Positions 39,016 through 52,046 are shown, counted from the stretch's first letter. The stretch is 64,000 bases of DNA from Candidatus Brocadiia bacterium (GCA_050015075.1 JBEKCB010000022.1:23478-87477); one strand, 5' to 3'. Program-made: numbers and translations. Notes: generated from the letters alone by a model not told the origin.

Positions 39016-39200
39016 GCGAGTGCGGAGTGCGGAGTGTTGAGTGCGGAGTTCGCGAGCGGATGAGCGGATTGCCGCGGTCGTCTGATTACTGCTCACAAAG
39101 CCAGGAGGCGCTACCCGTGCCAAGCCAAAGAAATGGTTATTCTGTACTCCGCACTCTATACTCCGCACTCCGCACTCCGCGCTCCGCACTCTGCGCTCGC
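39016..39200. repeat. 7-nt tandem-repeat palindrome (GAGTGCG)n...(CGCACTC)n with the pilin RBS and start codon in its loop
   Basis: Left arm 39016-39050, right arm 39146-39200; about 32 bp near-perfect pairing; AGGAGG at 39103 and GTG at 39117 lie between the arms. Confidence 0.9.
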
Positions 39201-40421
39201 GCGTTCACGCTCGTCGAGATGCTGACGGTCATCGCCATCATCGGCATCCTTGCCGCAATCCTCATCACCGCCGTGCCGACCGTCATGCGGAACGCGCGCA
39301 TCGCCACCGCCAAAGCCGACATCAGTCATCTCTACCAGGCGGCGACGTCCTACCAGTTGGACTTCGGCGCCTTCCCGCCGGACTGCACCGCCTTCTGGAC
39401 GAACGGACAAGTGCAGCAACCGGACTGCCCGTTCCCCGGAGTTTGGAACAACCAGTCCGCCCCGTACAACGCCTCGCTCAGCCCGAACGAGTTGCTGATG
39501 TGGTACTTGACGATGCAGTACAGCACCGGGCAGCTTAACCCCGTTACGAACAGTTATCCGGCCTCGGGTTACCCGGCCGGTTACCCGGCCGACCCAACCC
39601 TGCAGGGAAACTGGCCGGGTAGCCCTTCCAGCCCTTCCGCCGCCACCGTTGTGTTCTCGCACGGCGTCAACGCCGGCCCCTACTACGACATGAAGGCGAA
39701 GCAGAAAACCGATGTCAACGCGAACGGCTTCTGGGAGTTCATGGATCCGTGGGGCCGGCCGTACATGTACCGCGCCTATCCGCAGTTTGCCCAGGTCATA
39801 GGCGCCACCCCGCCTCCGAATTCGGCCCCCTACACGGTCATCCTGACGCTTGGCAACCTTGCTGGTCCCAGCCCTTACGGGCCCGAGGTCGGCACCGTTT
39901 GCAACACCTACACCTACTACGGCGGCTACAACTTTTACGCGAACTCGCCCCTGGCCGGCACGACCGGTTCCATCCAGCTCACCGGTTTCAGCAATCCCCT
40001 CTACAACGGCACCTTCGCGTTCCAGGGCGTGCCATACAATCAGGGCACGAACCCGAACAATAATCAGGTCGTTTTGACGTTCGCGGCGAATCCGGGGCCC
40101 GCCGGCACGCCCGGCTACTACAGCTTCCCGCTCCACAACAAGCAGACCTGCGACATCTATAGTCTGGGTCCCTACGGACTCACCCGCGCCGCTTCTTCAA
40201 TGCCGAATGCCAATAACGCGCCCCAGGAGTGGAAGCCCACACACGGCGGCACTTCGGTCGCGGCCGACATGGCCCTCAAGAACTCGTCGCTCGACGCCAC
40301 TTCGCTGGACGCATGGGCCCAGGTCTGGGGCACGCCCGGCGACGGAAACGATATTAACGTGACCAGCGGCAACATCATCGTCAACGTCCAGTACCAGGAC
40401 AATATCTGTAACTGGAATTGA
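39117..40421 (+). CDS. Large type IV prepilin-like protein (GspG/PilA-like)
   Basis: RA|FTLVEMLTVIAIIGIL N-methylation motif, DPWGRPY and IYSLGP GspG-like motifs; alternative in-frame GTG at 39027. Confidence 0.88.
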   Translation: MPSQRNGYSVLRTLYSALRTPRSALCARAFTLVEMLTVIAIIGILAAILITAVPTVMRNARIATAKADISHLYQAATSYQLDFGAFPPDCTAFWTNGQVQQPDCPFPGVWNNQSAPYNASLSPNELLMWYLTMQYSTGQLNPVTNSYPASGYPAGYPADPTLQGNWPGSPSSPSAATVVFSHGVNAGPYYDMKAKQKTDVNANGFWEFMDPWGRPYMYRAYPQFAQVIGATPPPNSAPYTVILTLGNLAGPSPYGPEVGTVCNTYTYYGGYNFYANSPLAGTTGSIQLTGFSNPLYNGTFAFQGVPYNQGTNPNNNQVVLTFAANPGPAGTPGYYSFPLHNKQTCDIYSLGPYGLTRAASSMPNANNAPQEWKPTHGGTSVAADMALKNSSLDATSLDAWAQVWGTPGDGNDINVTSGNIIVNVQYQDNICNWN

Positions 40422-40464
40422 AGCGGCGCCTGAGTCCCGGAACGCCGCCAAGGAAAGCCCGCAC

Positions 40465-41022
40465 ATGAGCAACCCGATCGCGCGATCCCGCCTTGCCCCG
40501 CAGCGCGCGCGCGCCATGACGCTGACCGAGATCATCGTCGTCATGTCCATCATGATCATCCTCGTCAGCGCCGTGGTCGTCGCCGTCTTCCGCGTCTCCT
40601 CCAAGGGGCCGGTGGAAGGCACCAAGGGCTTGCTCCAAAAGCTCGCCGTCGGCCTGGAAGCCTACCGGGCCACTTACCGGATGTATCCGCCCATGGATCC
40701 CAACGATCCCTCTTCCCGGTTGAACCTCAAACAGCCCATACAGCTCGCGCAGGTCCAAGTGACCTCGGGCGTGCTCTGGCAGGCGCTCGAATTCAGCGGC
40801 GAGGGACAGTTCATGGCCCCGGTCTCCGCCGCCTACAAATCCGCGGGCGGCGTCTTCACCGATTCACGGACCGGCTCGGTGCAGACGTGGTACTACTACC
40901 AGGACGCGTGGCTGCAGCCGCTGCTCTACGTTTGCCCGGGGCCCAACTACACGCAGTACACCTTGACCTCCGGCGGCCAGGACCTGATCCTGGGCACGGC
41001 CGACGATATTACGGTGCCCTGA
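40465..41022 (+). CDS. Type IV prepilin-like protein (GspG-like)
   Basis: RA|MTLTEIIVVM; C-terminal DAWLQPL.Y...LTSGGQDLILGTADDI. Confidence 0.88.
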   Translation: MSNPIARSRLAPQRARAMTLTEIIVVMSIMIILVSAVVVAVFRVSSKGPVEGTKGLLQKLAVGLEAYRATYRMYPPMDPNDPSSRLNLKQPIQLAQVQVTSGVLWQALEFSGEGQFMAPVSAAYKSAGGVFTDSRTGSVQTWYYYQDAWLQPLLYVCPGPNYTQYTLTSGGQDLILGTADDITVP

Positions 41023-41025
41023 CAC

Positions 41026-49100: not shown

Positions 49101-50898
49101 CGGGCCAGGCATCCTCCCCTGGCAAGCCGCCGGCATGTATACGCGGGCTGACGGCGGATACGCTGACCTTCGCCGGATCCCCGGCGCGGCTGTCGGCGCC
49201 CTCGGCTTTGTCACCGATAGTGGAGGAAATCCAGCCCCGACGCTCTCGACCGCGACATTTCCGATCAACTACGGGACTTATGTCATTTGCATGTCTGAGG
49301 AATCGTACGAGAAACAATGGACCGCCCAGAAAGGCGACCCCGACTATAGCACCACGCCCAGCACCTATAACCCCGGCGGCCTGGTCCCGCCGCCCACCAT
49401 AAACGGCGACGGCATCTGGGGCGACGCGCCGAACGAAGCGTACCCGATCTATCCTTTCGGCGACCTTAACTCCGACCAGTACACCATGGCCCTGTTGATG
49501 GGCGTCAAGGGCTCGCCGACGGCGTACAAACCCTCCGTTGCCGTCAGCTATGTCGCCGGCGCCCAGATCGCCCTGGTTGCGGGCGGCCCGGCGGCGGACG
49601 GCAGTTACGTGGACGGGGCGATTCCGGTTATGAATGTCCCGCCTCATCTGGACGCGACATACCATAACGAACTCAGTTGCTACTCCAGCATCGAGAAGAC
49701 GGTCATCCTGCAGCCCACCTGGGATACGACACCCCAATACGGGCCGTATTGGGCGCCCTACGTGACTGCAGCGGCCGGCACCATACCGACAACCTCGTCG
49801 CCTCAGGGGCTCGCTGCCTCTCAGAATACGCTGGTCATCGGCCAGGATGATTCGCCCCGAACCCCGGCGGGCAACACATTTCGAGCCTGCCTGAACAAAA
49901 ACTATGGATACTCCTCGAGCATTTATGTCGGTATGATATGGGATCCCGCTGCAGTGCCGACATGGTTCGGTGCGGGTACACCGCCCTGGCCGAACTCGTC
50001 CCCTCCCGTTTGGTATACCGATAAACGGTGGGCCACTCTGGCGAAGCCGTCTCTCCTGGCTTTGCAGTATCGCGCCTTTCCGTTCATCTTGAATCGTCCG
50101 TACCCGACCACCGGTTGGCTGGGCCTGGTGCCAACGAGCAATACCGATGCCGTGAATGCCGCAACCGGAAATCCAACCGTATTGGGCTCATGGCGCACGA
50201 TTGATCCCAACCCGAACCCGCCGGTCGCCGGTCAAGTGACGCCGCCGGCGACGCCTGAGCAGCTCCTCGGCACGCTGATGTCCAACGCCACCGTCGGCGG
50301 AGTTTACGCGCGTTTCAACATCAACACCGCGCCGGTGGATACGCTCAAGGCCGTCTTCCCCGACGCAACCGCACAGGCCATCGTCTTTGCCCGTAACGCG
50401 CGGGCGAAGGGCTTTGCGCCGACGACTTATCCCTGGTACTCCGGCGTGCTGTCGCCGGCGCTCGCCAATGCTTCGTGGGCGACGTGGGACGAACTTCTCA
50501 ACGACCCGCTTTTCCAATACTCTGCGACTGTCAGCGGCTACCCTCCTCCGCCTCCGCCGAACGTCGGCGGCATCGGATTCTACGATTGTCACGATCCTGT
50601 CAACCCGCTGACGGACCTCGTCTCCAACGCCGACGCCGGCGCGGGCACCTATGCGGACGGGTTCCCGGACAACTCGAACGAGAAAAAAGAGTGGTTCATG
50701 CGCTACTCGAACCTCTTCTGCCTGCAATCCACCTCCTTCCAGTTCACCGTCGCCGGACTGGTCTACGCGGACAGGCCGTGGGACCCGGTGACGATGCAGA
50801 ACAACGAGCCGGTCGCCATGGTGCGCATCGAGGTGGACGTGGACCTGAGCACCGGCACCCCGAGCATCGTCCACTTCCGGTACCTGACACAACAGTAA
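46153..50898 (+). CDS. Giant PilX/GspK-like pilus tip protein (1581 aa)
   Basis: [19 protein letters not shown] lacking Glu5 as typical of PilX/Gsp[16 protein letters not shown]...AQAIVFAR GspK-like motif; [13 protein letters not shown]a-binding-like loop. Confidence 0.85.
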
Positions 50899-50907
50899 GG
50901 ACGAGAC

Positions 50908-51044
50908 GAATGCAAAATGCGGAGTGCAGAATGCAGAATGCAGAACAGTACGGCAACGGGAAGAGCCGCCGGCGGCGAAACCGTCGTTCATTCCGGAGTC
51001 CACACTCTGCGCTCTGCACTCTGCATTCTGCATTCCGCACTCGC
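50908..51044. repeat. Heptamer palindrome in the pilin leader, (GAATGCA)n...(CACTCTG/CATTCTG)n
   Basis: Five units at about 50908-50945; ccgtcgttcattcc; six units at 51003-51044 abutting the A-F-T-L codons. Confidence 0.9.
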
Positions 51045-52046
51045 GCGTTCACGCTGATCGAGATGCTGGTCGTTATCGCCATCATTGCGGTCCTGGCCGG
51101 CCTCCTCCTGCCGGTACTGACGAAAGCCAGGGAGGAAGCCCGCAGGAAAATCTGTCTTAATAATCTGCGACAAATCGGCGCGGCCTGCATTGCATACCAG
51201 GACCCCAACGGCGATTACTTCCCTGCGTTCCTGCAACAGGCGACCTATAACAATACGGCGCCGCCTCCGCCGCTATGTACGCTGAACGGAATTTCATGGC
51301 CATGGCCGGGCCAGATGGTTATGACGCCCCCGCAGCCGCTGTCCTGGAACTCTTCTAATTCCTACGGCGCAGGCGCCGTCGTCTCGGACTATGGCTTCAA
51401 CTACGTTTGCCTCGTACCGAACACGGGCTGCGAACCGTACTCGGATTGCTCGCATTGGCAATTGCTGCAGGGCTTCGATGGGACTTTTCAGCCAATGCCT
51501 TCGCTGGCCTGTCTGTATCCCGCGTATATTGACAACGTGAAGGTTTTTGGGTGCCCATCTACGCCGGATAAGCCGCTGATCGCCTTTGCCTACTACAATG
51601 GAGCCAGGCATACTTGTTTTGGGTTCGACGCATATAGCTCCGGCATACATGTCAATACCGTGGACCCGGCGACGTATACCGGGAATGAAGTGAGCGGCAC
51701 GAACAAGTGCAGTTATTTCTATGACGAGCTGACGAGCTTTCGTAATGCTGATCCCGACCTCGCCGTTGCCTGCGATGCGGACGGTCAGACGTGGACAAAC
51801 TCAAACGGCAAGTATCCGCCATACGCAAGCATATGGTTTCGTACGCCTGTAACGAACCACAAAAACGGCCAAAATGTGATGTATTTCGACGGCCACGTGA
51901 AATGGGCGGAAACCGCATACTCAAGTTCTGACGCAACCGACAACATCTTCTGCCCAAACGGAAGCATCGGCGGCGGCCAGTGGAATCCGGACACCGACTC
52001 GTATATGTGGGATGGCTTCGACAGCCGAATCCCACAATCACAATGA
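50910..52046 (+). CDS. Prepilin-type protein, DUF1559 / H-X9-DG family
   Basis: [63 protein letters not shown]. Confidence 0.9.

Follow-up and report, generated by a model that had tools for sequence, protein, structure and literature searches.

We analysed a 64,000-nucleotide stretch of DNA from a Candidatus Brocadiia bacterium, hereafter the window, which corresponds to G000:C22:23478-87477 of a 4.64 Mb draft genome (G000; 65% GC, 66 contigs) and is contained in runs of peat metagenomes. The window carries an operon like those of type II secretion systems or type IV pili, with a GspE-like open reading frame (ORF), GspF, pseudopilins, and a GspK-like protein, and six of its gene junctions are occupied by elements built of tandem 7-nt units with the consensus RANTGCN (Table 1). 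The prepilin N-terminal methylation motif was found in seven operon genes. PF07963, the motif with a glutamate at +5 and a hydrophobic helix, scores above its cut-off in six proteins (39027, 41027, 42127, 44532, 50910, and 52071), and the 40465 protein scores just below the Pfam cut-off (18.5 against 21.2 bits). The 1581-aa protein is probably GspK-like, a likeness read from its hydrophobic N-terminus and not returned by a tool. The pilin genes are intact both in G000 and in a relative of the same genus, G001, whose GspF is 97% identical, and the dN/dS between the two genomes is 0.30-0.63.

Table 1. Heptamer-array elements and operon genes, in window coordinates
Feature	Position	Strand	Description
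GspF-like platform protein gene	37777..39015	+	PF00482, E 3e-67; TAA stop adjoins element 1
Element 1	39016..39200	+	Left array (GAGTGCG)n 39016-39052; loop 96-110 nt; right array (ACTCCGC)n 39141-39200
Pseudopilin 1 (N_methyl, T2SSG)	39117..40421	+	Cleavage-site F codon 39204; likeliest start GTG 39117
Pseudopilin 2	40465..41022	+	No element; 17-aa leader
Element 2	41026..41074	+	Left array only, (AATGCAA/AGTGCAA)n; right arm absent
Pseudopilin 3 (N_methyl)	41027..42130	+	F codon 41102
Pseudopilin 4 (N_methyl)	42127..44529	+	ATG overlaps upstream TGA (ATGA); cleavage-site L codon 42241
Element 3	42134..42225	+	Left array (GATTGCG)n 42134-42165; loop; imperfect right arm CATTCCA/CATTCCG 42201-42225
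Element 4	44532..44619	+	Left array 44532-44568; right array (TCTGCAC)n 44595-44619
Pseudopilin 5 (N_methyl)	44532..46040	+	F codon 44628; in-frame starts 44526, 44532, 44568
Element 5 (intergenic, untranslated)	46040..46130	+	Left array (GAATGCA)n straight after TGA 46038-46040; right array (TCTGCAC)n 46092-46130
GspK-like protein gene (putative), 1581 aa	46153..50898	+	No Pfam hit, no N_methyl hit; own ATG 3' of element 5
Element 6	50908..51044	+	Left array (GAATGCA/GAGTGCA)n 50908-50945; loop; right array 50998-51044
Pseudopilin 7 (N_methyl, DUF1559)	50910..52046	+	F codon 51048; database gene call P0001 starts at 50931, 371 aa
Pseudopilin 8	52074..53291	+	No element; 6-aa leader

Three consecutive RANTGCN units with at most one mismatch were matched 24 times in the window, as against 0.02 expected from 100 shuffles, and 23 of the 24 matches lie inside the six elements. 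These are the positions at which an earlier inspection of the same DNA, the sequence-only reading, had placed the arrays; its remark that this variant was not seen elsewhere in the window holds apart from one short trace on the minus strand (61262-61281). This trace reads GAGTGCG GATTGCG GAAGGC and is enclosed in the loop between the arms of a small palindrome, GCCTTGCGCG / CGCGCAAGGC; apart from it, the window has members of the family only in the operon. The elements at 39016, 44532, 46040, and 50908 have inverted arms, 17-37 nt long and 80-96% complementary, and their RNA folds reach -105.8, -44.3, -49.3, and -73.3 kcal/mol (z -7.45, -3.57, -6.15, and -6.72), respectively. Palindromes had been proposed at all six sites, but in the element at 42134 the arms differ at one position per unit (GATTGCG versus CATTCCG) and the fold is weak (z -1.91), and the one at 41026, which lacks a right arm, forms no palindrome (z -0.58). 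The sequence CGTTCATT lies 5' of the right arm in four copies, and the loops of the 44532 and 46040 copies are 89% identical over 28 nt, both as read before; because junction motif and loops are shared, the view that the copies are related elements and not independent microsatellites is supported. A scan against Rfam 15 gave no match that reached its gathering score; the only match, MIR1858 (32.8 bits; gathering score 137), was dismissed as a chance match to a long hairpin.

Separate from the arms of element 4, an 11-bp perfect palindrome (44617-44627 / 44632-44642, CTCGATCAGCG-TTCA-CGCTGATCGAG) is centered on the F codon of the cleavage site at 44628, and the last leader codons are therefore the reverse complement of the sequence that codes for TLIE. 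It has the appearance of the conserved pilin N-terminus duplicated in inverted orientation, and a palindrome placed in the same way, with arms of 10 bp, is present in copy 6 of G001.

For each pilin, all in-frame ATG, GTG, and TTG codons between the upstream stop and the cleavage-site codon were listed. The gap from stop to array is 0-9 nt in the window, and each of the five leader copies offers its earliest in-frame start 0-12 nt away from the upstream stop, one case being the ATGA overlap at 42127. In the pilin at 41027, the possible starts before the F codon are confined to the array (41027 and 41048), and in the pilin at 50910 those after the upstream stop are confined to the left array (50910 and 50931), with no ATG, GTG, or TTG between the array and the cleavage site in either gene. 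Unless CTG is used, the array must therefore provide the start of both pilins. In pilin 1, the GTG at 39117, which lies in the loop of element 1, is preceded by AGGAGG, and starts at 39027, 39060, and 39069 are also available; since the GTG and the AGGAGG are both kept in G001, a leader of 29 aa that takes in only the right arm is predicted as the likeliest. The pilins at 42127 and 44532 have starts both at the left edge and in the loop (in the loop, ATG at 42190 and a start at 44568, respectively). Loop starts in the 39016, 42134, and 44532 copies give leaders of 29, 17, and 20 aa, so that the 25-46 aa leaders of the sequence-only reading are upper bounds; its leaders of 17 and 6 aa for the repeat-free pilins agree with the start listing. 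By the same listing, at least the right arm would be translated in four genes and the left arm in two. The element had been assigned to the leaders of six pilin genes and is found there in five N_methyl prepilins, whereas the copy at 46040 is untranslated and precedes the GspK-like gene.

The use of array-borne starts finds its best indirect evidence outside the operon, at a junction between OppB and OppC. There, one ATG-bearing unit stands among GTG units, in frame and equidistant from the gene in G000 and G001, and the number of units upstream of it differs between the two genomes; in a further genome, G003, OppC has no array and has its own ATG beside the conserved N-terminus. This pattern would fit a start codon in use within the array. 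The conservation of the leader frame between G000 and G001 was considered as proof of read-through and dropped, because the arrays give starts in every frame. Residues 1-46 of the protein at 50910 were searched against a set of 5.8 billion proteins; the search gave 14 candidates and two hits (the protein's own cluster and one close relative), but carries little weight, as it covered only proteins of 207-662 aa.

The 7-nt unit is not a multiple of three and the arrays lie within leader-coding sequence, so one might regard them as phase-variation switches, in which a change of one unit would shift the leader frame and turn the pilin on or off, as CTCTT does in the leaders of Neisseria opa genes (PMC3745409). 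The elements at 41026, 44532, and 50908, however, have no stop in any sense frame, and each of their left arms offers a start (ATG, GTG, or TTG) whichever of the three frames is read; if 7 nt were added or removed, the frame would therefore remain open and keep a start. The arrays are frameshift-proof, not switches. Population data came from assembled contigs of three DNA runs and one RNA run, which hide rare variants. One run of the four, a peat metagenome, has a variant that lacks one 7-nt unit at 46106, and this sole indel falls in the untranslated copy 5. Most members of the family also lie outside ORFs, and phase variation, which the sequence-only reading had listed among the possible roles, is highly improbable. 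Many unrelated contigs pile up at the arrays and account for the depth spikes there, and contig breaks and false joins occur at these places. One contig of the RNA library matches pilin 1 exactly (39754-40012); no listed RNA contig bridges an element, and such contigs are silent on transcript ends or processing. Two more general properties were considered as well. The absence of stops is weak as a special property, as, at 65% GC, 27% of 38-mers drawn at random from the genome also have no stop in any of the six frames. A start codon in the unit was rejected as a general rule, since the hairpin unit CGAGGA/TCCTCG, found at 55 loci of the genome, has none and other genomes have C at the free position.

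Genome-wide array lists were obtained with Tandem Repeats Finder (TRF). G000 has 372 arrays with a period of 7, and 78 of them, in 63 loci, have a RANTGCN unit, with both arm types at 13 of the 63 loci. In addition, an array and its reverse complement lie at most 200 nt apart at 164 inverted-array hairpin loci with periods of 6-10 nt and many unrelated units, the commonest being CGAGGA and then GACGATG (17 plus 4 loci). By their flanks, these 164 loci are 88 tandem, 22 convergent, and 5 divergent, with 47 unclear and 2 at contig ends, and the genome as a whole has 2046 tandem, 385 convergent, and 387 divergent junctions. Among arrays whose period is not divisible by three, 214 of 438 sit less than 80 nt after a confident stop, as against approximately 28 of 385 random positions. 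Of 20 RANTGCN loci picked for a visible adjacent co-directional gene, 19 have an array that begins -2 to +11 nt from the stop. The genes next to RANTGCN loci are diverse: PIN/TRAM and an epimerase; an amidohydrolase and GH10; OppB and OppC; SmpB; a SIS/CBS (KpsF-like) protein and a HAD hydrolase (KdsC-like); ABC1 kinase and PgpA; a trypsin/PDZ (HtrA-like) protease; GroEL; DnaE and NDK; Mu gpT and Gp36; and MazF. At most of the non-pilin loci examined, the start of the downstream gene itself lies past the array.

The window itself holds five more inverted-array hairpins of other units, which count among the 164 loci of the genome and are located at 11402-11492, 14660-14842, 15673-15757, 20220-20320, and 54900-54974. 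Their units are the 6-mer TCGTCC/CGAGGA, which occurs twice, the 10-mer TTTGCACGGA/AATCCGTGGC, the 8-mer GGAAATTG/TCTCCTAA, and the 10-mer CACAGATGAA/CCATCTGTGT. Elsewhere in the genome, RANTGCN arrays in reverse-complement sense lie inside long ORFs for membrane proteins at C2:61161, C3:18084, and C51:13261, two of these proteins being paralogues that share the loop position of the array. A Mu-like prophage (C25:13000-22300, with the gpT major head protein and Gp36) has three or four RANTGCN arrays at gene junctions, so the family also populates mobile DNA.

About ten G000 copies share a conserved core of ~80 nt between the arms, which holds two small GC-rich hairpins; one core-bearing copy, C37:37210, has quite different arm units (GAGTACT). 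In the comparison with miniature inverted-repeat transposable elements (MITEs), the arms serve as inverted repeats and the ~10 copies have a common core; no partner element was found. Two genes in G000 match PF01797 (Y1_Tnp), and neither has a RANTGCN array or an inverted array pair within 1.5 kb; a link to the transposases known as RAYTs was therefore rejected.

The census bears directly on the claim of the sequence-only reading that the arrays form a pilin-specific, undescribed system. PF07963 matched 32 places in the genome. An array lies within 200 nt upstream of 6 of the 32 N_methyl genes, compared with 38 of 2884 ORF starts (odds ratio 17, P 6e-6), and of the genome's two TadE genes, one carries a complete hairpin in the leader, as expected for a miniature mobile element that inserts specifically at prepilin leaders, the strong form of the sequence-only reading. 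However, five of the six cases belong to this one operon, and the enrichment proposed as a check on the claim is gone outside it (1 of 27, P 0.31); the remaining case, at C20:79122, is a pilin of another cluster whose leader has a short array. Furthermore, 57 of the 63 RANTGCN loci are not at N_methyl genes, and 26 of the 32 N_methyl genes, including those of the C23, C3, and C9 clusters, have no array. The outcome that the sequence-only reading had itself named as refuting has thus largely come about. The census largely refutes a pilin-targeting element, to which we assign only a very small chance, and, given also the variety of neighbors and the Xanthomonas repeats of similar kind already described, neither pilin specificity nor an undescribed system can be upheld. 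In the Tad cluster, the gene after the array-bearing TadE has a right arm translated 5' of the membrane anchor. Arrays that are in frame end up in N-terminal tails before a membrane helix, as in the pilin leaders, OppC, and the Tad-cluster protein, which fits tolerance.

Several pseudopilins within 41027-53291 also share a recurring motif, YxC...N....PPN..W (for example YYCLSNTIGVEPPNANWQ), with weak to moderate matches to CBM_5_12, the best being that of the 52071 protein (E 4e-6); this suggests pilus subunits that may bear carbohydrate-binding modules.

The pilus operons of relatives, whose alignment had been proposed as a further check, were compared with that of G000. G001 has elements at the same six junctions. 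Its copy 2 has a right arm and is 48 nt longer than that of G000, its copy 3 has two right arms, and its copy 5 has none. In copies 2-6, the units are AAGTGCA/TTTGCAC in G001 and, for the most part, GAATGCA or GAGTGCA paired with TGCATTC or TGCACTC in G000; hence, both arms have changed in step. G002 is a member of the same family, with a GspF that is 80% identical; its six pseudopilin genes are not preceded by any of these heptamer arrays, and the readable leaders are 6-27 aa long. Its junction between GspF and the first pilin (L014, about 160-240) has a different, degenerate array resembling ATGAAGG, and in G011 (L017, 3100-3175) a GATTTTG/AATCCAA hairpin lies at the equivalent junction of the pilus operon, upstream of a pilin with its own start. 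At the junction of ABC1 and PgpA (G000:C11:108793-108946 versus G001:C84; L116, L133), the conserved core lies in opposite orientation in the two genomes. This inversion shows that the arms recombine at the DNA level, which offers a way to keep the arms complementary without selection on RNA structure. Farther afield, 13 of the 31 genomes examined in the class have at least four RANTGCN units, and none of the 31 has the reversed control pattern; of 251 genomes sampled from the phylum, 24 have at least five units and 7 have the control pattern. The RANTGCN family is widespread but patchy.

These changes in step, and the retention of all six junctions in both species, are also what one would expect if the hairpins were domesticated expression devices. 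Under this explanation, the start region would be hidden in the stem and translated only when a ribosome that terminates 0-12 nt upstream opens the stem base and reinitiates, or the stems would be cut by a double-strand RNase, thereby setting the ratio of major to minor pseudopilins. The closeness of the first starts to the upstream stops agrees with it, and the start codons of the left arms are paired in stems of -44 to -106 kcal/mol; the unfolding of inhibitory hairpins by the upstream ribosome is described as an accepted model of coupling (PMC12548453). On the other hand, the same source states that structure right after the upstream stop reduces coupling efficiency. The same elements follow many unrelated genes whose downstream partner starts beyond the array, and they also occur at convergent junctions; the right arm has been lost from the 41026 copy in G000 and from copy 5 in G001 with the genes intact; exchange of arms at the DNA level, as in the core inversion, can preserve complementarity; and the operon of G002 runs without these elements. 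We therefore regard domestication for expression as unlikely. Somewhat more doubtful still is the idea that the self-complementary heptamer arrays of Planctomycetota act as a reusable, frame-independent cistron linker. Such a linker would place a start in three frames at the stop, its stem would block free ribosome entry, and only the terminating ribosome would restart and read through; pilus operons would have recruited it as a means of fixing the ratios of their subunits, the encoded peptide being discarded by prepilin peptidase.

The closest known counterparts are the heptamer repeats GGGAATC of Xanthomonas and GGGGA(C/T)T of Nostoc (Rehm et al. 2015, PMC4692102). In the account given there, GGGAATC occupies ~180 dispersed loci, of which 89-93% are intergenic. 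The distance to the end of the upstream ORF averages 28 nt, the flanking ORFs are mostly co-directional and rarely divergent, and 70-75 convergent inverted pairs could fold into stem-loops. Between close species, these repeats vary in length as well as in sequence, and xpsF, pilU, dnaE, and groES are among the associated genes named (PMC4692102). The RANTGCN arrays likewise consist of tandem 7-nt units with fixed and free positions, at 63 loci; they lie near the 3' end of the upstream ORF, co-directional and rarely divergent, and inverted pairs are frequent, four of the six window copies folding at z <= -3.6 (rounded). Unlike the Xanthomonas type, the units GAGTGCG, GAATGCA, and GATTGCG have no runs of GGG and thus no quadruplex potential, and the host belongs to Planctomycetota, whereas the Xanthomonas and Nostoc repeats are from Proteobacteria and Cyanobacteria. 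Also in contrast to the Xanthomonas type as PMC4692102 reports it, several copies here lie inside frames and would supply the starts of prepilins. Heptamer hairpins embedded in cleavable prepilin leaders, where they supply start codons, are what is new here; a limited check of the literature, little of it aimed at this question, found no paper on heptamer-array hairpins in Planctomycetota or in prepilin leaders.

Repetitive extragenic palindromes (REPs) and the related BIMEs are described as single palindromes of 20-40 bp with a GTAG or CGTC tag and a link to RAYTs; their termini often give the stop of the flanking ORF, some copies lie wholly in ORFs, and they are reported in Planctomycetes too (Di Nocera et al. 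2013, PMC3733652). The present elements are similarly dispersed stem-loops at gene ends, some of them inside ORFs, but their arms are heptamer arrays of variable length and the Y1_Tnp genes are unflanked. By reading the sequence, no GTAG or CGTC tag was found at the ends of the six elements, the other loci not having been searched systematically. Looser parallels are TAACTGA and the opa repeats. TAACTGA direct repeats of Beggiatoaceae, Cyanobacteria, and Bacteroidetes are reported at 169 intergenic sites, patchy across phyla and a few nucleotides from start codons, with a proposed role in translation and a single inverted case (MacGregor 2015, PMC4679880). They resemble the present family as tandem heptamers of patchy spread, but contain the stops TAA and TGA and lie upstream of starts, while the arrays here are stop-free, commonly form inverted pairs, and begin at the upstream stop. 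The CTCTT unit of opa is likewise a short repeat not divisible by three in the coding region for the cleaved leader of a surface protein, where it switches the frame (PMC3745409). In contrast to opa, the arrays here fold into hairpins and keep every frame open with a start, and most of the family lies outside genes. Mycobacterial interspersed repetitive units (MIRUs) are tandem repeats at the junctions of polycistronic operons, with small frames that overlap the neighboring genes; their units are 40-100 bp long without arm-loop-arm hairpins, and the heptamers of the cyanobacterial STRR sequences have different units.

Taken together, we consider it probable that the six elements are REP-like hairpins of Xanthomonas-type heptamer repeats, which are dispersed in the genome and tolerated in cleavable pilin leaders. 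They would belong to the dispersed RANTGCN hairpin family, one of many array-hairpin families in this uncultured planctomycete, and would lodge straight after stops between co-directional genes. Change would proceed by slippage of units together with recombination or conversion between arms, so that complementarity is kept while the unit drifts. In the pilin operon, where the cistrons abut, the elements would have been absorbed into the 5' end of the downstream reading frames, because abutting cistrons leave no free spacer. They would be tolerated there because the arrays are stop-free and have ATG, GTG, or TTG in every frame and because the encoded leader is removed by prepilin peptidase. This agrees with the suggestion of the sequence-only reading that the leader serves as a safe harbor, the cleavable leader being a tolerant site. 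Where an element supplies the start codon, as predicted for at least two pilins, it can therefore no longer be lost. The anatomy of the elements, their distribution over the genome, their turnover between relatives, and the absence of alternative starts are observed directly, whereas we infer that the arrays are translated, that tolerance and not function accounts for them, and how they spread.

Several observations weigh against this explanation. All six junctions are occupied in both species of the genus. The local density, 6 loci in 12 kb as against 0.16 expected from the genome-wide density (Poisson P 2e-8), is far from an even dispersal, and together with other tight clusters of RANTGCN loci in the genome it points to local spread; no mobilizing enzyme or partner element for the arrays was found in G000. 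Pilus-type genes recur among the cases of arrays in ORFs (five here, the C20 pilin, TadE, and the adjacent membrane-anchored protein), a recurrence that could be more than tolerance. In-frame CTG codons in the right arms would yield leaders of 6-11 aa, the start in use being a prediction. An nhmmer profile built from seven core-bearing copies matched the ~10 copies and no window copy at E up to 1, and we accordingly do not claim the window loops as members of the core subfamily. Finally, the gene calls behind the counts of junctions and ORFs are those of a crude codon-usage caller, with 2884 ORFs over 78% of the genome.

If the elements are indeed tolerated repeats, they illustrate how genes can become bound to a repeat that is itself selfish or neutral: a gene depends on the array as soon as its native start has been replaced, and the cleavable leader of a pilin would be the site where such dependence costs least. 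In practice, gene callers will report odd 'leaders' of 25-59 aa (MQNAECR- or HSALCTL-type) in pilins, OppC-like permeases, and other proteins of planctomycetes, and assemblies break at the arrays. Should the coupling explanation prove true, the arrays would be a natural part that enforces 1:1 translation of neighboring genes in any frame.

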